Part shown: positions 12,137-25,734 of the stretch, piece after piece
Layout of the letters: each line of letters opens with the position of its first letter
Position numbering within the stretch: the stretch's first letter is position 1
Source: Thermotogaceae bacterium
GTDB taxonomy: Bacteria; Thermotogota; Thermotogae; MWEM01
DNA length: 63,281 nt
Assembly (NCBI GenBank): GCA_030445775.1
Contig: JASUTC010000003.1
Span: 1-63,281 of the forward strand
Reading direction: 5' to 3'
Program-made: the position numbers and the translations under genes
The notes under the pieces: model-generated
Told to the model about the DNA's origin: nothing
The model's database searches: none
What the model saw: the letters and a program-made list of their open reading frames with translations, nothing else

Positions 12137-12508
12137 TTATGTTAACGCTGCAAGAACACAATCTTTTACCACATTCATATCAAATTCTTCGGCTAATCGA
12201 TCTATTTCCACACTTCTAGCACCAGGTTGTAACCAGATATTTTTTATCCCAAGTTGTGATACTTGGTGAATAAGCTTTTCACCAATTGACGGATTAACAA
12301 CAAAATCAACAACATCGATTGACTGCGGAATCTCCAGCAAAGTTGGATATACTTTTACACCGCCTATTGCTTTTATTTTTGGGTTAACCGGATAAACATC
12401 ATAACCGTTATTAACGAGTATTTTAAAAATCTTATAACCGTATTTATCCGATTTGTCAGTAGCGCCCAACACTGCCCATCTTTTTAAAGAAAGCATTTTC
12501 TCCTTCAT
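12137..12508 (-). CDS. CoA-binding protein (YccU-like Rossmann fold)
   Basis: WAVLGAT...KYG, YPVNP, IDVVDFVV, IWLQPGA, DC motifs. Confidence 0.88.
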   Translation of the reverse strand: MKEKMLSLKRWAVLGATDKSDKYGYKIFKILVNNGYDVYPVNPKIKAIGGVKVYPTLLEIPQSIDVVDFVVNPSIGEKLIHQVSQLGIKNIWLQPGARSVEIDRLAEEFDMNVVKDCVLAALT

Positions 12509-12652: not shown

Positions 12653-12710
12653 TTGAATATAATTTTGATTGGTATATGATATAGATGTGATGGTTCATTC
12701 ACATATCTAT
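12653..12710 (+). promoter_or_regulatory. Candidate promoter (TTGAAT-N16-TATGAT) followed by an inverted repeat, possible TetR operator
   Basis: ATAGATGTGA-tggttcat-TCACATATCTAT at 12681-12710, just downstream of a plausible -10 and upstream of the catabolic operon. Confidence 0.4.
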
Positions 12711-12739: not shown

Positions 12740-13480
12740 TTGAAATTTGAAGGGAAAATTACCGTTATTACCGGGGCTGCAAGGGGAATTGGTAGGGAGA
12801 CAGCCCTGTTATTTGCAAAACATGGATCAAAAGTCATCGCTTGTGATGTTTTAGACGATGATTTACAAACTTTAGAAAATGATTCCAGGGAAATGACCGC
12901 CGGTTCAATTAAAGGTGTCCATTTGGATGTGACCAACAGAAAAGAGATTGACAAAGTAATCGGAGAAATTAAAGAAGAATTCTCAAAAATTGATATACTG
13001 ATCAACAACGCTGGGATTACCCGCGATGCTTTCCTGATGAAAATGACTGAAGAACAATGGGATCAGGTTATTAATGTCAATCTTAAAGGTATCTTTAACA
13101 TGACCCAGGCTTGTTCCAGACTCATGAAAAACGATGGGGGCGTTGTTTTGTCCACCTCTTCGGTAGTTGGTGTTTACGGAAATATTGGTCAAACAAATTA
13201 TGCAGCCACCAAATCAGGTGTCATTGGTATGACCTATACATGGGCAAAAGAATTGGCCAGGTATAAGATTAGAGTAAATGCTGTTGCCCCCGGTTTTATC
13301 AAAACACCGATGACAGAAAATCTTCCACAAAAAGTATTGGATTACATGACAGAAAAAACACCTCTGAAGATGATCGGTGATCCAATCGATATTGCCAATG
13401 CCTTTCTGTTCCTGGCAAGTGATAATGCCAGATATATAACAGGACAAGTACTTGGTGTAGACGGAGGTCTTGTTATTTAA
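12740..13480 (+). CDS. fabG: SDR 3-oxoacyl-ACP/CoA reductase (FabG/PhaB-like)
   Basis: TGAARGIG, NNAGITRD, YAATK catalytic motif, VNAVAPGFI.T.M; GGAGGT RBS before TTG. Confidence 0.88.
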   Translation: MKFEGKITVITGAARGIGRETALLFAKHGSKVIACDVLDDDLQTLENDSREMTAGSIKGVHLDVTNRKEIDKVIGEIKEEFSKIDILINNAGITRDAFLMKMTEEQWDQVINVNLKGIFNMTQACSRLMKNDGGVVLSTSSVVGVYGNIGQTNYAATKSGVIGMTYTWAKELARYKIRVNAVAPGFIKTPMTENLPQKVLDYMTEKTPLKMIGDPIDIANAFLFLASDNARYITGQVLGVDGGLVI

Positions 13481-14782
13481 ATGATATCCAACAAGGAGAA
13501 ACCAATCAGAAGAATCCCGAAATCAGAGAAGGGTGAAAAAACATGGAAATCCCTTTTTGAAAGTGCACAGCGCATTTTCTTGGAAAAGGGTTATCATAAA
13601 GCTTCTGTATTGGCTATCTCTAAAGACGCCAAGGTCTCTCCTGCAACTTTTTACCAATATTTCAGTTCAAAAAACGAGATCTTTGAAATCATATTGGAAA
13701 CCTTTCAAAATGAATTTTTCAACCTTTTATCCAGCATCATCCATTCAGAATTGACTTTGGAGGAAAAAATAAAGATTCTTATCAACCGAGTTTTTGATAC
13801 ATTTTGGAATTTCAGATATGAGTATAAAGTATTTCGTGAAGCTGAATTTATAGATAAGGAACTCTGTCTTAATTTCCATTTAAAGATAAAAGCTATTTTA
13901 GAAAATAACCCGGACTCTAATTCTCAATCCCAAGACCCTGATCCCTTTTTTTGGTTTTTGTTTGGACCTTTGTTTTACATCGCAGGTTATTGGATTCTTT
14001 GGAATGATTCAAAAGTGCCGGAAGGAACACGAGAAACCCTTTTGCAATTCTATTTAAACGGTCTTTCAATCAGAAAATTCAGCGTGGATGAAAAGGTTTT
14101 CTCCACTCTGAATGCGTTCCGATTAGATGATGAAAATATTCTGAATAAAGGGGAACAGAGTAAAAAGAGATTATTGAATTCAGCTGAATTACTATTTGGA
14201 GAAAAGGGATATTTTGAAACAACCGTTCATGAAATCTGTCAACAATCGAATCTGAGTGCCGGGGCGTTTTACTTGTATTTCCCGGGAAAACAGAATGTGT
14301 TATCTGAGTTAATCAAAAAAACCAGTAAGGAACTCAGATTTGTTTTAAAAAAGTATTCAGAAAGATTTTCAGACAGAAGGGATATGGAAATTGCATCGCT
14401 GAAAGGATTTCTTGAATTTTTCAAAAAACATTCTAACATGTATGGTGTTGTAAGAGAAAGCGAATTTATCGACAATAAAATCACATTGGAATATTACGAT
14501 TCCTTAAAAAAGCCCTATATAAAGGTATTGGATCATGCTAAAGAAAAAGGACAGATTCGAGACTACGATTCCGAAACACTCTCCATGATCTTAATGGGAA
14601 TCGGACATTTATTAGGACAATCTCTTTTGATTTTATCGGATAAATCATCAGAGAAATTTGAAAACTACCTAAAACCACTTTCACACTTGATGATGAATGG
14701 CGTTTCGAAGAACACTCCCTGGAATTTGGTTCACAAATTACACGGGATAGAATCTGAAAGCAATTCAACAACAGAAAAATGA
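13481..14782 (+). CDS. TetR/AcrR regulator with two tandem TetR modules
   Basis: Two HTH blocks: FLEKGYHKASVLAISKDAKVSPATFYQYFSSK and FGEKGYFETTVHEICQQSNLSAGAFYLYFPGK; both followed by (F/V)RE(A/S)EFID. Confidence 0.9.
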   Translation: MISNKEKPIRRIPKSEKGEKTWKSLFESAQRIFLEKGYHKASVLAISKDAKVSPATFYQYFSSKNEIFEIILETFQNEFFNLLSSIIHSELTLEEKIKILINRVFDTFWNFRYEYKVFREAEFIDKELCLNFHLKIKAILENNPDSNSQSQDPDPFFWFLFGPLFYIAGYWILWNDSKVPEGTRETLLQFYLNGLSIRKFSVDEKVFSTLNAFRLDDENILNKGEQSKKRLLNSAELLFGEKGYFETTVHEICQQSNLSAGAFYLYFPGKQNVLSELIKKTSKELRFVLKKYSERFSDRRDMEIASLKGFLEFFKKHSNMYGVVRESEFIDNKITLEYYDSLKKPYIKVLDHAKEKGQIRDYDSETLSMILMGIGHLLGQSLLILSDKSSEKFENYLKPLSHLMMNGVSKNTPWNLVHKLHGIESESNSTTEK

Positions 14783-14792
14783 GGAGGAACGA

Positions 14793-15992
14793 ATGAAAAA
14801 GATCTTTATTACCGGAGCAAAAAGAACAGCCATTGGAACGATGGGAGGCACCCTTAAAAATACATCAGCCGTTGATCTTGGTGTAGTAGCTGCTAAAGCG
14901 GCTATGAAACAATCCGAAATCAATCCTGAAGAAGTAGATGAAACCATAGTCGGAAATATACTTTCCGCCGGTATTGGAATGGGACCGGGAAGACAAGTCA
15001 GCATATACGCCGGTGTACCGGAAGAGAATCCGGGATATTCAGTGAATATGCTATGTGGATCGGGAATGAAATCAGTGATGATTGGAGCCTCAGACATTTT
15101 GCTTGGCGAGGCTGACTGTGTGCTTTGTGGTGGTATAGAAAATATGAGTATGTCACCTTATCTGTTACCAAAAGGGCGTTTTGGATACAGACTGGGAGAT
15201 GGAAAAGTTGTGGACCATATGGTCAACGACGGTTTGACGGATGTTTTCAACCACTATCATATGGGTTTGACTGCAGAGAATATTGCGGAAAAATATACGA
15301 TATCAAGAGAAGAACAAGACCAATTTGCCTATGAAAGTCAGCAAAGGGCTGCAAAGGCCATAGAAGAAGGCAAATTCAAAGACGAGATAGAACCCGTTAT
15401 CATCAAAGGAAGAAAAGGAGATACGGTTTTTGAAGTGGATGAACATCCAAGATTGACCGATTTGGAAAAAATGGCAAAACTGAGACCGGCATTTAAAAAA
15501 GACGGGTCAGTAACGGCCGGAAATGCCTCCGGTATCAATGACGGCGCTTCCATGACCATTTTGATGACGGAGGATAAGTGTGAAAAGCTCGGGGCGAAAC
15601 CATTAGCCGAATTGGTAGCCTTTGCACAGTATGGGGTAGATCCGGCATTTATGGGATTGGGTCCCGTTGGCGCCATCAAAAAAGTTCTTAAAAAAGCCGA
15701 TATGAGTCTTAAAGACATGGACCTTATCGAATTAAACGAAGCCTTTGCCGCTCAGAGCTTGGGTGTCATTAAAGATTTGACGGAAGAACATGATGTTTCG
15801 AAGGAATGGCTCATGGAAAGAACCAATGTGAACGGAGGGGCAATAGCCTTGGGGCATCCCATTGGATGTTCAGGAAACAGAATCATCGTCACCTTATTGT
15901 ATGAGATGAAAAAAAGAAACCTTAAATACGGGCTGGCAAGTCTTTGCATTGGCGGAGGAATGGGAACCGCCGTTATTATTAAGAACGTATAG
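14793..15992 (+). CDS. Acetyl-CoA C-acetyltransferase (thiolase)
   Basis: NMLCGSG, NASGINDGA, ELNEAFAAQ, GHPIG, CIGGGMG. Confidence 0.96.
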   Translation: MKKIFITGAKRTAIGTMGGTLKNTSAVDLGVVAAKAAMKQSEINPEEVDETIVGNILSAGIGMGPGRQVSIYAGVPEENPGYSVNMLCGSGMKSVMIGASDILLGEADCVLCGGIENMSMSPYLLPKGRFGYRLGDGKVVDHMVNDGLTDVFNHYHMGLTAENIAEKYTISREEQDQFAYESQQRAAKAIEEGKFKDEIEPVIIKGRKGDTVFEVDEHPRLTDLEKMAKLRPAFKKDGSVTAGNASGINDGASMTILMTEDKCEKLGAKPLAELVAFAQYGVDPAFMGLGPVGAIKKVLKKADMSLKDMDLIELNEAFAAQSLGVIKDLTEEHDVSKEWLMERTNVNGGAIALGHPIGCSGNRIIVTLLYEMKKRNLKYGLASLCIGGGMGTAVIIKNV

Positions 15993-16072
15993 TCAATAAC
16001 CTGTTCTAATTTTTTGTTATTTTATTTATTTTTTTATACGATTCAAATTTTTCCGGAGTGGAGGACTTATTT

Positions 16073-17104
16073 ATGTCAAAAGAATTAATTGGTATCAGGG
16101 GAATCGGTACCTATTTCCCCGAGAAAATTGAAACTGCTCAGTATATAGCAGAAGAGACAAACATCCCGCAGGATGTTATAGAAAAGAAATTTGGCGTCTT
16201 GAAAAAAACCGTTCCAGGCCCAGAAGATACCGCCAGTAATATGGGGTTATGGGCTGCTCAAAAGGCGATTAAAAAGGCACAGATAAACCCTGAAGCAATC
16301 GATCTGGTGATATGGAACGGGGCACAGCATAAAGATTTTCCCTGCTGGCTTGCCAGTCTTGATGTTGCCCATCGATTAGGAGCCATTAATGCATGGGGTT
16401 TTGACATGGAAGCCATGTGCGGTTCCATGATGGCAGGTTTTGAGACGGCTAAGAGTCTCATGAGAAACAACGACGAACTGAAAACGGTTTTATTGTGTTC
16501 AGGTTACAGGAATAACGATTTGATCAGTTATCAGGAGCCTTCCTCTTCTTTTATGTTTGATATCGGAGCCAGTGGTGCAGCAGTCGTCTTGGAAAAGGGT
16601 TACAACAAGAATGTGATTCTATCTTCCTCTTTTAAAGGGGATGGATCATTCTCAAGAGGATGTGTTGTCCCGGTGGGAGGCAATGACCGCTGGCCCATGA
16701 AAGAAGAAGATGTCAAAGATTTCCATTTTAAGATCCAAGGAGATCCCAAGGCATTTAAAACCAAACTGGGCGAGAAGACATTACCCAACTTCTTCTGGGT
16801 CATTCGAGATTCTTTAAGAAAATCGGGTTATTCACAAGAAGATATCGATTATCTTGCCATTTTACATTTTAAGCGTTCTGCCCATGACTTAATCTTGGAA
16901 GAATTGAATATCAGCCCGGAAAAGACCACTTATCTCGATGAATATGGTCATATTGGTCAAAATGATCAAATCATTTCATTGGAGATCGGATTAAAGAACA
17001 ATAAAGTGAAAGACGGGGACATTATCGTTATGGTGGGAGCCGGCTTAGGCTTTGTCTGGGCATCTTCAGTGATTCAATGGGGTATATATCAAGGCGGGGA
17101 GTGA
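16073..17104 (+). CDS. FabH/KAS III-like thiolase-fold enzyme (atypical 3-oxoacyl-ACP synthase family)
   Basis: EAMCGS (catalytic Cys), LAILHFK, YGHIGQND, GAGLGFVW; ATG at 16073 after GGAGG. Confidence 0.8.
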   Translation: MSKELIGIRGIGTYFPEKIETAQYIAEETNIPQDVIEKKFGVLKKTVPGPEDTASNMGLWAAQKAIKKAQINPEAIDLVIWNGAQHKDFPCWLASLDVAHRLGAINAWGFDMEAMCGSMMAGFETAKSLMRNNDELKTVLLCSGYRNNDLISYQEPSSSFMFDIGASGAAVVLEKGYNKNVILSSSFKGDGSFSRGCVVPVGGNDRWPMKEEDVKDFHFKIQGDPKAFKTKLGEKTLPNFFWVIRDSLRKSGYSQEDIDYLAILHFKRSAHDLILEELNISPEKTTYLDEYGHIGQNDQIISLEIGLKNNKVKDGDIIVMVGAGLGFVWASSVIQWGIYQGGE

Positions 17105-17109
17105 TTTTT

Positions 17110-18411
17110 TTGAACGGATTTTACAAAGATTATGCGGCAAAGAAAACGGATCATCATCATGTTTTATCACAGATCAAATCCAATGATGTAATTGTTTGTG
17201 GCATGGCAGCCACGGAACCTCAACAACTCTTAACCGATTTACACACTATCGCTGACAGGGTAAAAAACGTTGAGGTGTACACATGCCTAAATATGAAAGG
17301 CTATGAGTTTTACATGAAAAAAGAATATGAAGACTCTTTTATCAACAATTCCTGGTTCCATAATGCAGCGATTCGCAGTGCTATTAAGAGTGGTTTAAGA
17401 ACAGCTGCCTATGTCCCAAACAATCTGCATGAAGCCGGTACAAACCTGCTTGCATTACAGGATCCGGACTTTTATGTGGGAATCGCATCTGAAATGGATG
17501 AACATGGTTTTTTTACCTGTTCTCTTAGTGCAACCTATGAGAAAGACGTGATCGAGAAAGCAAAAAAGGTGGTTCTTGAAGTGAACAAAAACGCCCCAAG
17601 GACCCATGGGGATACACAAATTCACATTTCTCAGGTTGATTGGCTGTATGAAGTCGACTATCCCATTCCTGAACTGCCGGATGTACAAGCCAGTGAAACC
17701 GATGAAAAGATTGCCGGTTATATTGCAGAACTCGTACATGATGGCTCAACACTTCAGATTGGTATTGGCGGGATTCCCAATGCGGTTGCCGGATTACTCA
17801 AGGATAAAAGAGATTTGGGGATTCATACTGAAATGTTTACCGAATCCATGATTGACCTTTTTAAATTGGGTGTCATCACAAACAGAAGAAAGACTCTTTG
17901 GCCGGGAAAAGCCATCTGTACTTTTGCATTAGGCTCAAAGAAAATGTACGACTTTATCCAGGACAATCCCGGTGTCTGGTTATTAAGGGGAAGTTATGTC
18001 AATGATCCTTATGTCATTGCCCAAAATGACAATATAGTTAGTGTGAACACAGCCATAATGGTGGATTTGACAGGACAGGTGTGTTCTGAATCAATCGGAA
18101 CAACTCAATTTAGCGGAACGGGTGGTCAGCTGGATACCCACAGAGGTGCTGTCATGAGTAAAGGCGGCAAAGGAGTTATTGCCCTCTCGGCTAGAACTCG
18201 AAAAGGGGCTTCCAAAATCGTTCCCATGCTAAAAGCAGGTTCTGGAGTTACCGTTCCCAGACAGGACTTGGATTGGGTTGTCACGGATTTCGGTATTGCT
18301 AAATTAAGGGGACTTCCAGTGAATAAAAGGGCAAAGGAATTAATCAGAATAGCACATCCCGATGACAGGGATGACTTAAAAAAACAGGCTCATGACATTG
18401 GGCTTTTATAA
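17110..18411 (+). CDS. Acetyl-CoA hydrolase/4-hydroxybutyrate CoA-transferase family protein
   Basis: LQIGIGGIP, DLGIHTEM (catalytic Glu), DLTGQV.SE, SGTGGQLD, IAHPD; probable TTG start at 17110 after GGGGAG. Confidence 0.9.
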   Translation: MNGFYKDYAAKKTDHHHVLSQIKSNDVIVCGMAATEPQQLLTDLHTIADRVKNVEVYTCLNMKGYEFYMKKEYEDSFINNSWFHNAAIRSAIKSGLRTAAYVPNNLHEAGTNLLALQDPDFYVGIASEMDEHGFFTCSLSATYEKDVIEKAKKVVLEVNKNAPRTHGDTQIHISQVDWLYEVDYPIPELPDVQASETDEKIAGYIAELVHDGSTLQIGIGGIPNAVAGLLKDKRDLGIHTEMFTESMIDLFKLGVITNRRKTLWPGKAICTFALGSKKMYDFIQDNPGVWLLRGSYVNDPYVIAQNDNIVSVNTAIMVDLTGQVCSESIGTTQFSGTGGQLDTHRGAVMSKGGKGVIALSARTRKGASKIVPMLKAGSGVTVPRQDLDWVVTDFGIAKLRGLPVNKRAKELIRIAHPDDRDDLKKQAHDIGLL

Positions 18412-18428
18412 AAAAGGAGGAAATTAAC

Positions 18429-19622
18429 ATGAAGAAATTGTTATTAATCGTTTTGGTCGCAGCTATGATTTTTTCAACAGGTTTTAGTGCGGAAAATTCA
18501 ACAAACGGAATAACCGACGATTCAGTAAAAATCGGTACATTCCAAGCGCTTTCGGGAGCAGTAGCCTTTATTGGTGTTTCAATGAACAAAGGAATGGAAG
18601 CTTACTTTAACTGGATCAATGAAAATGGTGGTATCTACGGAAGAAAAATCGACCTGATTTCAGTTGACGACCAATTTGTTCCTTCAAAAACAGTCATCGA
18701 AGTAAAAAGACTTGTCGAACAGGACAAAGTATTTGCAATCGTTGGTGGCCTTGGAACACCTGGATGTCTCGCAGTTATGGACTATTTAAATGAAGGTGGG
18801 GTTCCATTTGTATACCAGGGAAGCGGTTCAAGCTTGCTATCTATACCTCCGAAAAAGTATATTTTCTCAGTACAGCCAAACTATTCCATTGAAGCACCCA
18901 TTGTTGGAAAATATCTTACCGAAGTGGCAAACAAAAAGAGAATCGGTATGATTTACAGAGCTGCTGAAGATGGAAAGGAAGCTTATGCTGCACTGAGGGC
19001 ATGGTTAAGGGAAAACGGAAAATCAGATATGTTGGTTAGAGCCATAGCCGTTGATCCTGCACAAACATCCTTTGACAATGAAATCATCAAAATGATGCAA
19101 TCCGGAGTCGATGCAGTTTACCTGTTAACCTTTACCGATCAGACGCCAAACATCCTGAAACAATCCAGAGATTATGGGTTTGAACCATTATTTGTTTCCT
19201 GCTATCCTAATGCTGAACCGAAACTTATTCAGTTAGCTGAAGGAGCCGCAGAAGGAATGGAAGCTATGGCCTGGGTTGATTTAAATGATCCTGAAGCTGA
19301 GAATTATTTAAAATATATGGATATTTTCCAGGCTACATATCCGGATGAAATTCCCGATGCTTATGCTGCAGCAGGATTTATAGCCGCTGAATTGTTCACT
19401 GAAGGACTTAGAAGAGCGGGAGAAAATCCAACCAGAGAATCTTTAGTCGAAGGCCTCGAAAGCTTGAACGGATGGCAAGGTATTATTACACCGATTATAA
19501 CTTATTATCCGTATGATCCTGAAAATGAAAAGGCCAGACTCGGTTTGAATGCCATGTATATCTTACGAGTTGAAGGAGATCAGATGCTAAAGGCAATTGA
19601 CTGGGTAAAAATGGGAGAATGA
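18429..19622 (+). CDS. ABC transporter substrate-binding protein (Liv/HAAT-type, PBP1 fold)
   Basis: Signal peptide, GITDDSVKIG...LSG, GGIYGRKI...DD, LVEQDKVFA; AAGGAGG RBS. Confidence 0.9.
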   Translation: MKKLLLIVLVAAMIFSTGFSAENSTNGITDDSVKIGTFQALSGAVAFIGVSMNKGMEAYFNWINENGGIYGRKIDLISVDDQFVPSKTVIEVKRLVEQDKVFAIVGGLGTPGCLAVMDYLNEGGVPFVYQGSGSSLLSIPPKKYIFSVQPNYSIEAPIVGKYLTEVANKKRIGMIYRAAEDGKEAYAALRAWLRENGKSDMLVRAIAVDPAQTSFDNEIIKMMQSGVDAVYLLTFTDQTPNILKQSRDYGFEPLFVSCYPNAEPKLIQLAEGAAEGMEAMAWVDLNDPEAENYLKYMDIFQATYPDEIPDAYAAAGFIAAELFTEGLRRAGENPTRESLVEGLESLNGWQGIITPIITYYPYDPENEKARLGLNAMYILRVEGDQMLKAIDWVKMGE

Positions 19623-19636
19623 TCAATTAACTATTT

Positions 19637-19675
19637 TGGGATTCGGTGTTCGAACCGAATCCCATTACTTTTTTT
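19637..19675 (+). terminator. Intra-operon stem-loop or partial terminator after the SBP gene
   Basis: Perfect 11-bp stem TGGGATTCGGT/ACCGAATCCCA with a 6-nt loop, followed by TTACTTTTTTT. Confidence 0.7.
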
Positions 19676-19705
19676 ATTTATTTTGTTGTTGGCAGGTGAT
19701 AAGGT

Positions 19706-20473
19706 ATGGGTTTAATGGAAGTCAGAGAAGTAACGGTAAGATTTGGAGGTCTCATTGCAGCCTCTGAAATCACCATGGATATAGAAGAAGGAACCATTCA
19801 TTCGTTGATTGGCCCCAACGGGGCTGGAAAAACAACCTTGTTTAACGTAATCACAAGAGTAATTGACCCAAACATCGGCGATGTTCTTTTTAATGGGGAA
19901 AGTTTGTTGAAATCAAAACCTCATGAGATTATAAAAAGCGGAATTGCCAGAACATTCCAAAATCTTGAAATCTTTAAATTGATGACGGTGAGGGACAATT
20001 TTCTAGTTGGGGAACATGTGAATATAGATACTAAATTAACCGCTGAAATGTTTCAAACAAAACATATCCAAACTGAAGAAGCCAATTCAAACACTAAGGC
20101 CGTTCAAATAGCTGAGTTTTTGGGGTTAAAGAATAGATTGAACAGTCTAACCGGAATGCTCCCATATGGATTGCAAAAGATGGTGGAAATCGGAAGGGCA
20201 TTGATTTCTTCTCCAAAACTATTGCTTTTGGATGAACCAGCAGCAGGCTTAAACCCTTCAGAAACCCATTTCCTAAAGGAAGTTATCAGGGAAATCAAAT
20301 CCCAGGGTGTGACCATATTGCTTGTGGAGCATGATATGTCGTTGGTCATGGATATATCAGATTACATTACGGTCATGAATTTCGGAAAGAAGATTGCTGA
20401 AGGGATGCCTGATCAGATTAAAAACGATCCTGAAGTCATCAAGGCCTATTTGGGGGAGAGCAAATATGCTTAA
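19706..20473 (+). CDS. livG: Liv-type ABC ATP-binding protein (LivG-like)
   Basis: GPNGAGKT, ARTFQN, LPYG, LLLDEPAAG, VEHDM, AYLG. Confidence 0.88.
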   Translation: MGLMEVREVTVRFGGLIAASEITMDIEEGTIHSLIGPNGAGKTTLFNVITRVIDPNIGDVLFNGESLLKSKPHEIIKSGIARTFQNLEIFKLMTVRDNFLVGEHVNIDTKLTAEMFQTKHIQTEEANSNTKAVQIAEFLGLKNRLNSLTGMLPYGLQKMVEIGRALISSPKLLLLDEPAAGLNPSETHFLKEVIREIKSQGVTILLVEHDMSLVMDISDYITVMNFGKKIAEGMPDQIKNDPEVIKAYLGESKYA

Positions 20474-21170
20474 ACTAAACGATGTTAAACTCAAATACGG
20501 ATATGTTGAAGCACTTAAGGGGATTAACCTTGAGGTCAAAGAAGGATCCATCACCGCTTTACTTGGTGCCAATGGTGCAGGAAAATCAACAACACTTCGT
20601 GCCATATCCGGGCTTAATCACATTTATTCCGGAGAAATCATCTTTTTAGACCAGGTAATTCAAAATCGTTCAACCGATTATATTGTCAAGCAGGGCATCA
20701 TCCATTGCCCGGAGGGCAGAAAACTTTTTCCCGATCTTTCTGTCTATGAAAATCTTTTAACAGGGGCTTATGTGTTAACGGATAAAGAAAGAGTGAAAGA
20801 AAATCTTGAACGTGTTTATACTCTTTTCCCCATTCTTAACGAAAGAAGAAAACAAATGGCCGGAACACTCTCCGGTGGGGAGCAACAAATGCTTGCAGTT
20901 GGAAGATCACTTATGGCTGATCCGAAATTGTTAATGCTTGATGAACCCTCTCTCGGACTGGCTCCGATCATATTTGAACAAATCTTTGATACCTTAATTG
21001 AATTAAAAAAAGCCGGGACGACTATCTTTCTGGTGGAACAAAATGCGAATGCCGCATTACACATATCAGACTATGCTTATATCTTAGAAGTTGGAAAAAT
21101 ACCTCTGGAAGGTCCTGCTTCGGAGTTGTTGAAAAATGATCAAGTCAAACAGAAATATCTGGGGGGATAG
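20466..21170 (+). CDS. livF: Liv-type ABC ATP-binding protein (LivF-like)
   Basis: GANGAGKS, PEGR, LSGGEQQM, LDEPSLGLAP, VEQN; ATG at 20466 after GGGGAG. Confidence 0.88.
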   Translation: MLKLNDVKLKYGYVEALKGINLEVKEGSITALLGANGAGKSTTLRAISGLNHIYSGEIIFLDQVIQNRSTDYIVKQGIIHCPEGRKLFPDLSVYENLLTGAYVLTDKERVKENLERVYTLFPILNERRKQMAGTLSGGEQQMLAVGRSLMADPKLLMLDEPSLGLAPIIFEQIFDTLIELKKAGTTIFLVEQNANAALHISDYAYILEVGKIPLEGPASELLKNDQVKQKYLGG

Positions 21171-21178
21171 GTGATATC

Positions 21179-22054
21179 ATGCAGCAATTAATATTGGGAT
21201 TAAGAGATGGAAGTTTATTTGCGTTGGTTGCTCTGGGTCTTGTTATCATCCACAGGACAACCGGTGTCTTGAATTTTGCTTACGGACATATGGGAATGTT
21301 TGCCGCCTATATTACATTCTCCTGTTATGCCTTCTTTGGATTTCCGCTGTTGTTGGCGATTTTTATGGGGCTTTTATTTGCCGTTATATTGGGAATGTTG
21401 ACAGAGAAATTCCTGTTACGCCCCATCAGAAACCTCTCTAATTCGTCGATGCTCATCATCACGTTGGGAATGCTCATGACTTTGGAAGGGACAGCCCTTT
21501 GGATCTGGAAACAAGATACCCGACAACTTCCAAATTTGATTAATGGTAAGCCTTTAATTGTCAACCTTGGCGAAACATTCTTGGTTATTACACAACAGGA
21601 TTTGTTGATTTTCATCTTAACGGCCATTATTGTTTTCGGGACCTTTTTTTATCTGAAATACACAAAAGTAGGACTGGCGGTCAGGGCATCTTCGCAAAAC
21701 GAAGAAGCTGCCAAACTTATGGGAATACCCGTTGGTGGTGTTTACGGATTTGCCTGGGGTTTTGGAGTTGCTTTAAGTGCTTTGGCAGCTATACTGGCAG
21801 CACCAAAAACATATGTACATCCAAATATGATGGTAGATCTTCAAATACAAGGCCTCACCGCAGCTGTTCTTGGTGGATTTGACAGTTTGCCGGGAGCAAT
21901 TGTAGGTGGTTTATTGCTTGGCGTCATTGAACAATTTGTTGGAGAATGGATCTCAGCGGAGTTGAAACTTGCAGTGGCTTTAATCATCATTATCGTTCTA
22001 CTGTTGATTAAGCCTTCAGGTATTTTAGGTAGATCATCCAAGAGGAGGGTATGA
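21179..22054 (+). CDS. livH: Liv-type ABC permease (LivH-like)
   Basis: ALVALGL..I...TGVLNFA.G, T..GLAVRA..QN..AA.LMGI, AAVLGG..S..GAIVGG. Confidence 0.88.
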   Translation: MQQLILGLRDGSLFALVALGLVIIHRTTGVLNFAYGHMGMFAAYITFSCYAFFGFPLLLAIFMGLLFAVILGMLTEKFLLRPIRNLSNSSMLIITLGMLMTLEGTALWIWKQDTRQLPNLINGKPLIVNLGETFLVITQQDLLIFILTAIIVFGTFFYLKYTKVGLAVRASSQNEEAAKLMGIPVGGVYGFAWGFGVALSALAAILAAPKTYVHPNMMVDLQIQGLTAAVLGGFDSLPGAIVGGLLLGVIEQFVGEWISAELKLAVALIIIIVLLLIKPSGILGRSSKRRV

Positions 22055-23829
22055 TTATGAAAAACATGAAAAATTTTATACTCTTTGCAGCCGTTCTAGC
22101 CATTTTACCCCTTCTCTTTTTAAATCAGACCTTTTTAATCAGTATTTTTTCTCAGGTGTTGATCTTTTCGATCGCCGCTTTGGGATTGAATGTGTTAATT
22201 GGCTATGCCGGACAAATTTCCATTGGTCATGCCGCTTTTATGGCATTAGGTGCCTATCTGTCAGCTGTACTGACTAAGAATTTTAATTTCCCGTTTTTGA
22301 TAACCATCTTTTTGGCGGGAGGGTTTTCCGGACTCTTTGGTTTGATTCTGGGTTTTCCGGCCTTAAGATTAAAGGGTTTTTATCTCGCCATCGCAACCAT
22401 GGCCTTTGGTGTTGCAGTTGAAAAAATTGTGGCAGCGAGTGATTTTCTGGGAGGCCATACCGGAATGACCAATGTACCCAACCCGGATCTTTTTGGCATC
22501 ACGATTTCCACAGATTTGGGGAAATATTATCTCATCGCCGTCATTACCATTATCTTATTCATCTTTGCTCAAAATCTAATGAAATCCAAAACAGGTAGAG
22601 CTTTTAAAGCCATACGAGAAAGTGAATTTGCAGCCAGATCTTCGGGGATTAACATTTCAAAGTACAAGTTGATCGCCTTTATCATAAGTGCAGTTTACGG
22701 CGGTATTGCCGGAGCACTGTATGCTCACACCATCAATTATATTGCTCCAACCGATTTTGCACTGGGTTTGTCCATCAATCTGTTGGCAATGATCGTCGTG
22801 GGTGGATTGGCTTCCCTTTCCGGAAATGTCATCGGTACTATTTTGATGGTTGCCATTCCTTTCTTTTTCAGTAGAAGCAATGTACCCATGTCGATTATTT
22901 TTGGTGTCATGCTGATTGTTGTTGTTCTGTTCTTCCCAAGAGGACTTAGCTATGCCTTATATATCTTCCAATGGAAATACCTTTGGAGACCCTATGTATG
23001 GATCAGAAAAAAGATTAGAATACTGCGATTTAAGGAGGAAAAATCAATGTTTGTTAACCTGGGTGATAAAAAAATCCATTATGAAACCGGAGGAAATCCT
23101 TCCGGAGAACCTCTGTTCATGGTCCATGGTAATTTTGCTTCGTGGAGATGGTACGAACCTGCCTTGAACAGATTGAAAGATACTCATTTCAGAGGAATCG
23201 CCGTTGATCTACCGGGTTTTGGCGATTCAAGCAACCCTGAAAGAGAAATCACCATTGAAAATTATGCCAAAGAATTGGAAGGATTTATCAACACCTTCAA
23301 TCTGAAAAAGATCAATTTAGTGGGTCATTCTCTCGGTGGTGCGGTATGCTTACGATATGCATTGAACAACCCGGATAAAATCAACCGTTTGTTGTTGATC
23401 GACTCGGCACCTGCGGATGGATTGATTACACCGGAGGAATACTATCCCGTCCTGAATTCCTATCAACATAATCGCGGACTTCTCAAGCTTGCATTGTCAG
23501 GCATGTTTCCTTCAAATGACCCGGACAAAATGCTAAACAAATTAACCGATGATGCCTTGTTGATGGATCCAAGGGCATTCTCGGGTAACGCCAGGGCTTT
23601 GGAAAAATACAATTATCTTGATGAACTATCAAAATTAAAAGCTCCGGTTTTATTCCTGGTGGGTGAAAAAGACACACTGATAACTGAGTCACTTTTAAAA
23701 CCAACGGCTGATCGTCTGCCTAATGCCGAAATAAAAGTCTTGGATAATGCTGGGCATGCGGTGAACGTTGAAGATCCTGAACGATTCATCAACATTCTGA
23801 AAGATTTTTTCGGAGGTAAAGAGGCATGA
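22051..23829 (+). CDS. LivM-like ABC permease fused to a C-terminal alpha/beta hydrolase
   Basis: Residues 1-~310 carry LivM motifs (GYAGQISIGHAAF, LKGFYLAIATMAF, GRAFKAIRE, PRGL). From codon 333 (ATG 23047) the hydrolase has HGNFAS, DLPGFG, GHSLGG, GEKD and AGH. Confidence 0.88.
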   Translation: MIMKNMKNFILFAAVLAILPLLFLNQTFLISIFSQVLIFSIAALGLNVLIGYAGQISIGHAAFMALGAYLSAVLTKNFNFPFLITIFLAGGFSGLFGLILGFPALRLKGFYLAIATMAFGVAVEKIVAASDFLGGHTGMTNVPNPDLFGITISTDLGKYYLIAVITIILFIFAQNLMKSKTGRAFKAIRESEFAARSSGINISKYKLIAFIISAVYGGIAGALYAHTINYIAPTDFALGLSINLLAMIVVGGLASLSGNVIGTILMVAIPFFFSRSNVPMSIIFGVMLIVVVLFFPRGLSYALYIFQWKYLWRPYVWIRKKIRILRFKEEKSMFVNLGDKKIHYETGGNPSGEPLFMVHGNFASWRWYEPALNRLKDTHFRGIAVDLPGFGDSSNPEREITIENYAKELEGFINTFNLKKINLVGHSLGGAVCLRYALNNPDKINRLLLIDSAPADGLITPEEYYPVLNSYQHNRGLLKLALSGMFPSNDPDKMLNKLTDDALLMDPRAFSGNARALEKYNYLDELSKLKAPVLFLVGEKDTLITESLLKPTADRLPNAEIKVLDNAGHAVNVEDPERFINILKDFFGGKEA

Positions 23830-24632
23830 ACCTTGAATTAACAAATGGCGGAAAAATATATTACGAAACCTATGGGCAACAAGGTCCATGGGTGGTTTTT
23901 CTCAACGGAATCATGATGAGTACCGCCAGTTGGGAGGGTTTTAAAGAGTCGATATCAAAGGATAATCGCCTGTTGTTGATGGACTTTCGGGATCAGGGAA
24001 ATTCCAGTAAAATCGAGAATCAAGATTATACATGGAAACTACACGTTAACGATCTTTTGGAATTGCTGGATCATCTGAAAATCGATCAAATCCACATGTT
24101 AGGTGTTTCATACGGGGGACAAGTTGCCCTTGAATTCACAAGAGAACATCAGGACCGATTGGCTTCACTGCTCTTGGTAAATGTGACTCCCAAAGTATCT
24201 CGTTTCTTACAAGCGATTAGTGATTCATGGGAGTTAGCGGCCAAGTTAAACAGTGGATCGGATTTTTTTACCATCGCCATTCCACCCATCTATTCAGATG
24301 TATTCTATGAAGAGCAGTACGACTGGCTTCAAAAAAGGCAAGATATCTTCGAAAAAATGCTGACAAAAGAATGGTTTGAGGGTTTCACCAGATTGTCAAA
24401 AAGCGCGAAGGATTTTGATTGCTCGGATCTTATCAGCAAAATCAAAGTTCCAACACTTGTTCTAAGTGCTGAAAAGGACATTCTCACACCTGCTGAGAAA
24501 ATGAATGAAATGGCCTCTCAAATAAAAGATTCTGTCTATCTACAAATCCCCAATGCGGGTCATGCAGCCTTTTATGAAAAACAAAAGGCATTCTTAACAG
24601 CAGTAAAAGGCTTCCTTTCCATAAATAAATAA
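23826..24632 (+). CDS. Alpha/beta hydrolase (enol-lactonase/esterase-like)
   Basis: FLNGIMMS, DFRDQG.S, nucleophile GVSYGG, AEKD, AGHA; ATGA overlap with upstream gene. Confidence 0.9.
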   Translation: MNLELTNGGKIYYETYGQQGPWVVFLNGIMMSTASWEGFKESISKDNRLLLMDFRDQGNSSKIENQDYTWKLHVNDLLELLDHLKIDQIHMLGVSYGGQVALEFTREHQDRLASLLLVNVTPKVSRFLQAISDSWELAAKLNSGSDFFTIAIPPIYSDVFYEEQYDWLQKRQDIFEKMLTKEWFEGFTRLSKSAKDFDCSDLISKIKVPTLVLSAEKDILTPAEKMNEMASQIKDSVYLQIPNAGHAAFYEKQKAFLTAVKGFLSINK

Positions 24633-24645
24633 CCAGCCAAAAATT

Positions 24646-24671
24646 AGGCCCGCTTATGCGGGCTTTTTTTT
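24646..24671. terminator. Rho-independent terminator ending the catabolic operon (possibly bidirectional)
   Basis: AGGCCCGC-TTAT-GCGGGCTT followed by a T-run; A-run upstream. Confidence 0.85.
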
Positions 24672-25734
24672 ATTTCACAAAATCCGAATACCCTCCCGGA
24701 TAATGGTAAATGTACTCAAAGCCAAGATCAGTCATCACTTTAACAGCCGTTATGCTTCTGCCACCGCTCTTGCAATAGACCAAATAGACCCCATTCTTAT
24801 CCATAGATTTAACTCTTTCCTCAAATTCCTCCGAGAGAATGTTGATATTAATGGCGCCTGCTATATGCCCTTCGTCGTATTCTTGAGGGGTTCTTACATC
24901 CAGGATAACCAGTTCTTCCTCTTCTAACAAAAGTTCTTGGACTTGACTTTTATTCACATCAGTCCAAAATCCCACGGGGGTCGTCTCGACTTTTTCTTCC
25001 GTTTGAGTTTCAACACGATGGTAATCTCCCAGCTCTCCTTCATATACATAGACATTTTTAAGGATGGGAGCTTGATCATCCAAAAAGTTTTTAACAGAGT
25101 TGAAAGTTGCTTGTTCGATGATATAATAATCTAAGGGGTTCAATTCATCATAGGATTCTTTAAAGTGTTCAAAGGAGAAGACCTTTATATTGGGTAAAGT
25201 TTCCAAAAACAATTTTGCCGTTTCCATATCCTCTATGAGCTTTAACACTTGACCTTTTGGTCTTTGGTATAACGGGTTGAGTGTCTTGATGGTCTCGAGT
25301 AAAAAGTCGGTCTCATAAAAACCTTGAAGGCGGTTTACGTAATTGCCGTTTTTATCAAAAAAAATCATTGTGGGCGTTCTACTAACTGAAAAATCTTTAA
25401 AGATCGTTGAATAGGGATAATTTTCTGCCTTTTCATCATTTATAGGAAATCTACCAAAATAAATGGGAACAGGATTAATATCCACAATAATAAACCTTTC
25501 TTTTAGAAAAGTAGCTGTCTTTTTATCTGAAAGGGTTTTTTCCTTTAAATCCACACAATCATGACAGCTTTTGATACTGAATAATATGATAAGTGGTTTT
25601 TCAGTTAATTGAGAAAGAGTATAAGCCTCGTTCAATTTGTTATCAATGACATAATCTGAATAAGTCAGCCCGAAAGAAAAAACGAATAACAATAATCCTA
25701 TCATTAATAAAATCTGCTTTTTTGTTAAAATCAT
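24670..25734 (-). CDS. Exported thioredoxin-fold (SoxW-like) + rhodanese fusion protein
   Basis: Signal peptide; SCHDC and RTPT cis-Pro in the Trx domain; LDVRTPQEY..GHI.GA.NI and YCKSGGRS in the rhodanese domain. Confidence 0.85.
   Translation of the reverse strand: MILTKKQILLMIGLLLFVFSFGLTYSDYVIDNKLNEAYTLSQLTEKPLIILFSIKSCHDCVDLKEKTLSDKKTATFLKERFIIVDINPVPIYFGRFPINDEKAENYPYSTIFKDFSVSRTPTMIFFDKNGNYVNRLQGFYETDFLLETIKTLNPLYQRPKGQVLKLIEDMETAKLFLETLPNIKVFSFEHFKESYDELNPLDYYIIEQATFNSVKNFLDDQAPILKNVYVYEGELGDYHRVETQTEEKVETTPVGFWTDVNKSQVQELLLEEEELVILDVRTPQEYDEGHIAGAININILSEEFEERVKSMDKNGVYLVYCKSGGRSITAVKVMTDLGFEYIYHYPGGYSDFVK

Follow-up and report, generated by a model that had tools for sequence, protein, structure and literature searches.

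What is the function of an operon in which an importer assigned to the branched-chain amino acid families stands beside two hydrolases and a set of enzymes of coenzyme A (CoA) metabolism? Such an operon occupies positions 12740-24632 of a 63,281-nucleotide stretch of Thermotogaceae DNA (the window), which is contig C108 of the host genome G000, 86% complete, and whose nearest named relatives are uncultured Thermotogota. An earlier note had read it as a system for taking up and fermenting 3-hydroxyacyl esters or oligomers. We found that the uptake and CoA-processing module is real, conserved, co-regulated and, as far as literature searches reach, undescribed. A role in the uptake and catabolism of an ester or hydroxy acid is likely. 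For the narrower proposal, that (R)-3-hydroxybutyrate enters as an ester or short oligomer, such as a fragment of poly-3-hydroxybutyrate (PHB), and is cleaved inside the cell and fermented to acetyl-CoA, the sequence leaves the chances about even.

The interval is filled by 11 co-oriented + strand open reading frames (ORFs), and the ORF list and profile searches agree with the earlier description of 11 tightly packed genes and their families. The number is 11 because LivM and the first hydrolase form one 592-residue ORF, a fusion that the earlier count had included without recognizing it. The features are listed below, with profile scores given against the cut-off of each model.

12137-12508, - strand: gene for a CoA-binding protein, divergent from the operon.
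12653..12680, + strand: candidate sigma-70-type promoter TTGAAT-16-TATGAT, with identical hexamers upstream in close relatives.
12686..12703, + strand: conserved palindromic operator TGTGATGGTTCATTCACA, its motif just downstream of the promoter candidate in 14/14 training upstream regions; putative site of the double TetR.
12740..13480, + strand: NAD(H)-type short-chain dehydrogenase/reductase (SDR) of the FabG family (TIGR01830, 299.7 vs 297.75; PhaB models below cut-off).
13481..14782, + strand: tandem (double) TetR regulator with two PF00440 stretches.
14793..15992, + strand: acetyl-CoA C-acyltransferase (thiolase), over the TIGR01930 cut-off; sole thiolase found in G000.
16058..17104, + strand: PRK06840 enzyme of the 3-oxoacyl-ACP synthase III (KAS III) fold with C121/H270/H298/D303 (NF005308, 451.8 vs 315); start probably Met6.
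17077..18411, + strand: CoA-transferase of the acetyl-CoA hydrolase/transferase family, nearest to 4-hydroxybutyrate CoA-transferases.
18429..19622, + strand: HAAT-family substrate-binding protein (SBP), not a LivK orthologue.
19637..19664, + strand: hairpin 3' of the SBP gene, a partial terminator or mRNA stabiliser.
19706..20473, + strand: LivG-type ATPase, by profile match.
20394..21170, + strand: LivF-type ATPase, by profile match; start probably Met25.
21179..22054, + strand: LivH-type permease, by profile match.
22051..23829, + strand: fusion of LivM permease and alpha/beta hydrolase Hyd1, 592 aa, with S427/D541/H569 and HGNFAS.
23032..23049, + strand: Shine-Dalgarno sequence AAGGAGG inside the fusion ORF, with an in-frame ATG (Met333) where the hydrolase domain begins.
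23826..24632, + strand: second alpha/beta hydrolase, Hyd2, S95/D218/H246; best PDB match MGS-M2 4Q3L, E 6e-55.
24646..24665, both strands: candidate bidirectional intrinsic terminator (hairpin) between the operon and convergent genes.

We collected 80 loci from Thermotogota and Spirochaetota by way of the KAS III-like protein, and counted co-occurrence in the 35 that have at least 7 kb on either side of the FabH-like gene. LivH/M was found in 34, the CoA-transferase in 32, TetR in 32, a hydrolase in 31, the SDR in 29 and the thiolase in 22; a second KAS III-like gene was present in 17 and the CoA-binding gene in 1. This clustering is far above chance expectation. Gene order varies widely between loci, and the linkage therefore looks selected, although loci of kin are not independent of one another. 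Thus a neighbourhood survey, as the earlier note had suggested, finds the module recurring in reshuffled form in both phyla. The CoA-binding gene does lie divergently, but it occurs in 1/80 loci and was rejected as a component of the system. Among 119 Thermotogota genomes (G000 and 118 genomes at least 90% complete), PRK06840 exceeds its cut-off in 72; matches to the SDR were found in 118 genomes, to the thiolase in 101, to the CoA-transferase in 91 and to the fusion protein in 88.

Beyond these taxa, the range of the module is based on few records and on atlas cluster labels. In three haloarchaeal records PRK06840 lies directly behind a HAAT importer, and one of them also carries a ligase, MaoC and a hydrolase. 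Two Bacilli (L105 and L106) have TetR, ligase, MaoC and PRK06840 (ligase and MaoC recognized from translations), followed by a HAAT importer in one and by the same SDR type in the other. The pairing of PRK06840 with MaoC and an acyl-CoA ligase, in the Bacilli and the one haloarchaeal locus, supports a 3-hydroxyacyl substrate. The cassette also occurs in a Chloroflexota record, there with a second KAS type. This second KAS III-like family (L055:8810-9811 on the - strand, L110, L113, L117, L233) joins or replaces PRK06840 in the cassette; it keeps the Cys, has Gln and Tyr-Thr at the other two catalytic positions, and scores below all NCBIfam cut-offs.

The operator provides the evidence for co-regulation. 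We scanned 87 other loci, held out from the training set, at a threshold of at least 15 bits; 33 of the 38 matches were upstream of a module gene by no more than 350 nt, and 24 of those 33 were more than 25 nt from the start, with the caveats that L125 repeats a training genome and that part of the motif resembles a ribosome site. Such upstream windows make up about 6% of bases, and a stricter mask gave 31 matches instead of 33. Only 2 of 1,424 upstream windows in G000 score for the motif, one being that of the window operon. The motif also precedes a detached thiolase-SDR pair (L109), and at the same threshold it was found at none of 6 fabF loci and none of 4 stand-alone SDR loci. The operator tracks the module through rearrangements, and the double TetR likely binds it. 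The regulated uptake and CoA module of the earlier note is upheld, and the conserved operator upstream of it had been overlooked.

We then asked what the importer carries. Every Liv model falls below its cut-off on the window importer (LivK, 87 vs 477). A different SBP, on contig C109 of G000, is the orthologue of Thermotoga maritima LivK (3TD9, E 1.5e-109) and is 22% identical to the window SBP. At the candidate amino-group sites the C109 protein has Thr, Tyr and Asp, and the window SBP has Gly, Thr/Asp and Tyr/Pro; we take these to be the positions that bind the alpha-amino group in LivJ. Because G000 has this separate LivK orthologue, the window importer is probably not for branched-chain amino acids, and the differing predicted binding residues also support what had been claimed earlier on this point. 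The best PDB matches of the SBP by profile are 3LOP and the fatty-acid binder 4N03, and its ligand is probably a carboxylate or ester. In Rhodopseudomonas palustris very few of 22 proteins labelled for branched-chain amino acids bound them (PMC3223731).

The same organism provides a comparable arrangement, pimFABCDE with the HAAT importer RPA3723-3725, in which a "branched-chain amino acid" importer feeds carboxylic acids to CoA enzymes (PMC3223731). The window operon differs in that it has no beta-oxidation enzymes and does have hydrolases and a KAS III-like enzyme. It shares the five-part HAAT layout with LivKHMGF, but its importer is below all cut-offs, the true orthologue is elsewhere, and LivM carries an enzyme domain. 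At L030, L034, L052, L113 and L115 two different HAAT importers adjoin in the cluster, which suggests two related substrates.

LivM and Hyd1 are in a single frame in 79 of the 88 matching Thermotogota genomes and separate in 9, by a hand count of spans and open-frame lengths. Most relatives also have an uninterrupted frame here, and a sequencing error was therefore rejected as the origin of the fusion. Thermotogota supply most of the atlas clusters that combine the two domains. The linker past the last hydrophobic stretch is basic, with 5-10 Lys/Arg vs 0-3 Asp/Glu in 30/30 sequences, and this suggests that the Hyd1 domain is on the cytoplasmic side. The Shine-Dalgarno sequence and in-frame ATG at the start of this domain also occur in 8 close relatives, spread over two codon frames; they are absent in L047, and a lax pattern finds some such site in 15/30 rows, the background being 38 of 11,056 internal ATGs. 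A free form of Hyd1 may be produced from this internal start.

The best PDB match of Hyd1 is PhaZ (8YNV, E 2e-24). HGN is present in 58/58 homologues, and the Ser, Asp and His of the triad are conserved in at least 95%. The HGN.S motif named in the earlier note is indeed shared: HGNFAS of Hyd1 stands at the same place as HGNMTS in Bacillus thuringiensis PhaZ (8YNV). Both Hyd1 and PhaZ (8YNV; NF050089; lipase box given in PMC7236355) are alpha/beta hydrolases with an HGN oxyanion motif and G-x-S-x-G, but Hyd1 is shorter and fused to a permease, and no polyhydroxyalkanoate (PHA) synthase was found in its host. Among plasmid records the best match to Hyd1 (39%, with the same HGNFAS) is in Deinococcus sp. 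KNUC1210, together with genes for a 3-hydroxybutyrate dehydrogenase that exceeds its cut-off and for a HAAT importer. On two Deinococcus plasmids (L231:8899-10714 and L232:8881-10699) the Hyd1 orthologue is accompanied by a HAAT importer and by an esterase of the MetX fold, which is split into two pieces in L231. A Bacillus match examined as a phaZ candidate was MenH instead, and PRK06840 does not adjoin a hydrolase in the Bacillus genome examined.

The remaining enzymes narrow the choice of acid. If no enzymes beyond the CoA-transferase, SDR and thiolase take part, the acid has to be a 3-hydroxy or 3-oxo acid. Searches of G000 found no acyl-CoA dehydrogenase, crotonase, (S)-3-hydroxyacyl-CoA dehydrogenase or class III PHA synthase, and these four were over cut-off in 1, 1, 0 and 0, respectively, of five genomes (G000 and four others, three of those closed, 99% complete). 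A 3-hydroxy or 3-oxo acyl substrate fits because beta-oxidation enzymes and PHA synthase were not found. The CoA-transferase itself scores 309 vs 675 on the butyryl-CoA:acetate CoA-transferase model TIGR03948.

The SDR has Asp36 in 82/82 homologues and is a predicted (R)-3-hydroxyacyl-CoA dehydrogenase. Its best PDB matches are 4NBU, 4NBV and 2ET6, of which 4NBU is a NAD-bound FabG (PMC5264612). It thus resembles the NADH-dependent FabG enzymes (4NBU, 4NBV, 4NBT, 4NBW) and the (3R)-hydroxyacyl-CoA dehydrogenase 2ET6 in having Asp after the second strand, and differs in belonging to a catabolic-type regulon. It passes the FabG model marginally and misses both PhaB models (TIGR01829, 233 vs 302; NF042966, 194 vs 436). 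Of the earlier "PhaB/FabG-type" label, FabG of the NADH type is therefore retained and PhaB is not.

This SDR is the sole match at E 1e-35 in 11/14 genomes of the host's own family, the only FabG-like gene found in G000, where FabF, FabZ and FabD are present, and the only FabG-like SDR of two closed genomes that have FabF, G105 (without the cluster) and G110 (where it lies within the cluster). Where the cluster is lacking, the SDR gene persists on its own. It probably doubles as the housekeeping FabG of Thermotogota fatty-acid synthesis. The FabG annotation, which the earlier note had called a mislabel, is hence not simply wrong. In all eight spirochaete carriers, canonical FabH and a better-scoring FabG are encoded elsewhere in the genome. 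For this reason the module is accessory, though Thermotogota likely use its SDR for fatty-acid synthesis as well.

G000 encodes KamA, KamDE, Kdd, Kce and Kal over cut-off, as well as MaoC, AtoDA and acetate kinase; the lysine-route loci are on C1, C12, C19, C63, C102 and C103, and others are at L112 and L120. Because MaoC is present and neither crotonase nor (S)-dehydrogenase was found, lysine-derived crotonyl-CoA would need an (R)-specific dehydrogenase, and the only candidates in G000 for the (R)-3-hydroxybutyryl-CoA step are the window SDR and thiolase. Thermotogota may thus convert crotonyl-CoA to acetate by an (R)-specific route, with the SDR and thiolase likely also serving lysine fermentation. 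In Marinitoga (L120) a second thiolase-SDR copy lies beside the lysine genes. The (R)-3-hydroxyacyl logic first put forward from the sequence is supported by the failure to find (S)-route enzymes, by the lysine pathway with MaoC and by the Deinococcus 3-hydroxybutyrate dehydrogenase locus.

We next consider PRK06840, which is named in no paper found, subscription journals lying mostly outside the search. It had been called FabH-like and given no role; the family assignment is right, and its triad now predicts an acyltransferase. The protein scores 124 vs 292 on TIGR00747 (FabH), below the cut-off, and has His298 where FabH has Asn, so that the Cys-His-Asn triad is not present. H298 and D303 are invariant in 90/90 homologues and C121 is kept in at least 90%, with Ser as the nucleophile in the two Bacilli (L105, L106). 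The spacing of C121/H298/D303 equals that of C113/H296/D301 (Cys and His-x4-Asp) in ChlB3, an acyltransferase in which, as in CerJ, the Cys is activated by the His-Asp pair (PMC9573744). The predicted structure (predicted local distance difference test 92.9) has the FabH fold, with Z about 39-40 and a root-mean-square deviation (rmsd) of 1.9-2.1 over 310-326 residues. PRK06840 therefore shares the KAS III fold and Cys with His-x4-Asp with ChlB3 and CerJ, but the sequence match is weak (E 6e-12 and 2e-9), H270 is kept and the context is primary metabolism. With FabH it shares fold, nucleophile and first His, but it has GH for GN and an extra invariant Asp, and it coexists with a true FabH in 8/8 spirochaetes. 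We favour acyl transfer as its reaction, with condensation a possible alternative.

Taken together, the HAAT importer would bring in a (R)-3-hydroxybutyrate ester or short oligomer, which Hyd1, tethered at the cytoplasmic exit and perhaps also free, would hydrolyse together with Hyd2. The CoA-transferase would activate the freed acid with acetyl-CoA, the SDR would oxidise (R)-3-hydroxybutyryl-CoA with NAD+, and the thiolase would yield 2 acetyl-CoA, from which acetate kinase would yield ATP. In the most speculative step, PRK06840 might shift the 3-hydroxybutyryl group from the ester directly onto CoA, sparing the activation step. That PRK06840 is such an "ester thiolase", moving 3-hydroxybutyryl units of imported PHB oligomers straight to CoA behind an importer with an esterase of its own, is a reading we regard as unlikely. 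Conversion of 3-hydroxybutyrate to 2 acetate and H2 yields about -35 kJ/mol, or about 1 ATP, and ABC import costs about 2 ATP. The import cost would thus consume the roughly 1 ATP gained per free monomer; oligomer import and direct transfer to CoA would give a better energy balance.

This energetic cost counts against the (R)-3-hydroxybutyrate reading for the free monomer, and a number of further observations weigh against the reading as a whole. The hydrolases are far below the cut-off of the PhaZ family, with Hyd1 at 118 and Hyd2 at 88 bits vs 300 (NF050089), and 8YNV aligns to Hyd1 in two stretches only. No secreted depolymerase was among the 4 hydrolase-HMM matches in G000, which was not a family-wide search. 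The Deinococcus link to 3-hydroxybutyrate dehydrogenase comes from a single locus; in D. ficus the genes listed include the hydrolase and importer but no such dehydrogenase, and both Deinococcus SBPs are at most about 23% alike to the window SBP. The top structures of the SBP are tied among a fatty-acid binder (4N03; Z 39.7, rmsd 3.1, 359 aligned), a hydroxybenzoate binder (4Q6W, an aromatic-acid binder; 39.5, 2.9, 350) and LivK (38.8, 3.0, 348). For PRK06840 the best 50 structure matches are condensing enzymes, tied among those of the KAS III fold, and neither CerJ nor ChlB3 is among them; H270, at the position of FabH His244, is invariant, where ChlB3 has Phe266. The thiolase is absent from 13 of the 35 full loci, the CoA-transferase is nearest to enzymes for 4-hydroxybutyrate, and the incompleteness of G000 weakens the enzyme absences.

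Some of these points would suit the same architecture acting on another small ester or lactone, such as 4-hydroxybutyrate, gamma-butyrolactone, acetoacetate esters, 3-hydroxyvalerate or short acylglycerols, which is possible though not what we expect. Besides the affinity of the CoA-transferase, the best NCBIfam match of Hyd2 is enol-lactonase (below cut-off), the clusters contain SBPs of two unrelated types and KAS III-like enzymes of two types, and HAAT SBPs bind many hydrophobic acids (PMC3223731). But 4-hydroxybutyryl-CoA dehydratase was not recurrent among the unlabelled ORFs of the loci, no genome-wide search being made, and saturated chains need an acyl-CoA dehydrogenase, not found in 4/5 genomes. 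It is very improbable that the operon is for branched-chain amino acid uptake adjoining unrelated lipid genes, as automatic annotation would have it. Pfam and NCBIfam do assign the importer genes to Liv families, and LivK 3TD9 is among the tied top structures, but the sub-threshold Liv scores, the C109 protein and the differing residues described above speak against it, and amino-acid uptake has no use for a permease fused to a hydrolase.

Two other explanations, both improbable, assign PRK06840 a synthetic role. It might condense an imported acyl group with malonyl-ACP or load acyl carrier protein (ACP), with the SDR as reductase, in fatty-acid priming or salvage. The retained H270 and KAS III fold would agree, and G000 has PRK06840 as its only FabH-domain gene found and this SDR as its only FabG-like one, with FabF, FabZ, FabD, FabK and ACP encoded elsewhere in the genome; as noted earlier, the cluster itself has no genes for ACP, FabF, FabZ or PHA synthase. 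However, the canonical FabH and better FabG of the spirochaete carriers argue against PRK06840 as the cell's initiation system, which bears out the earlier rejection of fatty-acid synthesis. In addition, PRK06840 does not reach its cut-off in 47/119 Thermotogota, of which two were tested and keep FabF, and the operator was not found at the fab loci examined. Haloarchaea, which to our knowledge have no ACP-based fatty-acid synthesis, keep PRK06840 beside the importer. With comparably small probability, the thiolase and SDR, which are reversible, might make (R)-3-hydroxybutyryl-CoA, from which PRK06840 would form an ester or oligomer (a solute or signal) that the importer recaptures and the hydrolases turn over. 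CerJ forms esters with the same triad (PMC9573744), the TetR scores best on the model of ScbR, an autoregulator receptor, at half the cut-off, and many carriers are from saline or deep habitats according to record titles. Yet a single operon that combines a repressor-type operator, an importer and two hydrolases has the layout usual for inducible catabolism, the cluster has no exporter, and the SDR is NAD-type.

If an ester or hydroxy acid is indeed taken up and degraded, this operon bears on a poorly mapped question: which organisms in digesters, oil fields and sediments consume the products of PHB breakdown, and by what routes. The operon is in most Thermotogota sampled and in cultured genera (Kosmotoga, Pseudothermotoga, Fervidobacterium and Petrotoga), and is thus directly testable. 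It gives a concrete test case for the uncharacterised PRK06840 family, and offers an ABC permease with a fused enzyme and a predicted operator for its regulator. Its SDR is a candidate single FabG of Thermotogota lipid synthesis that would act on both CoA and ACP substrates. Were the "ester thiolase" true, it would be an undescribed energy-saving route, common to bacteria and archaea, by which anaerobes without PHA synthase live on the storage polymer of others, and a widespread family labelled 3-oxoacyl-ACP synthase would gain a function.

We also noted several minor features. On G000 contigs C16, C107 and C23 there are two fabF and three ACP genes, and no canonical FabH was found; 20/119 Thermotogota, closed genomes among them, have no NF005308-related match at all. 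PRK06840 of the two Bacilli is followed by a long repeat protein that looks NHL-like by eye and has a predicted signal sequence (L106:8984-10849, L105:9010-10911). Of five sequencing runs listed, four are marked as probably DNA and the RNA run has 5% of the words; contigs of three runs were compared with the window. Positions 16057 and 22595 of the window are joined in one contig of run X3, with 28 letters on the short side, a possible artefact. Finally, the strong terminator placed at the operon end in the earlier note agrees with the hairpin at 24646-24665, called on both strands, and a predicted exported fusion of thioredoxin-like and rhodanese domains (24670-25734, - strand) converges on it.

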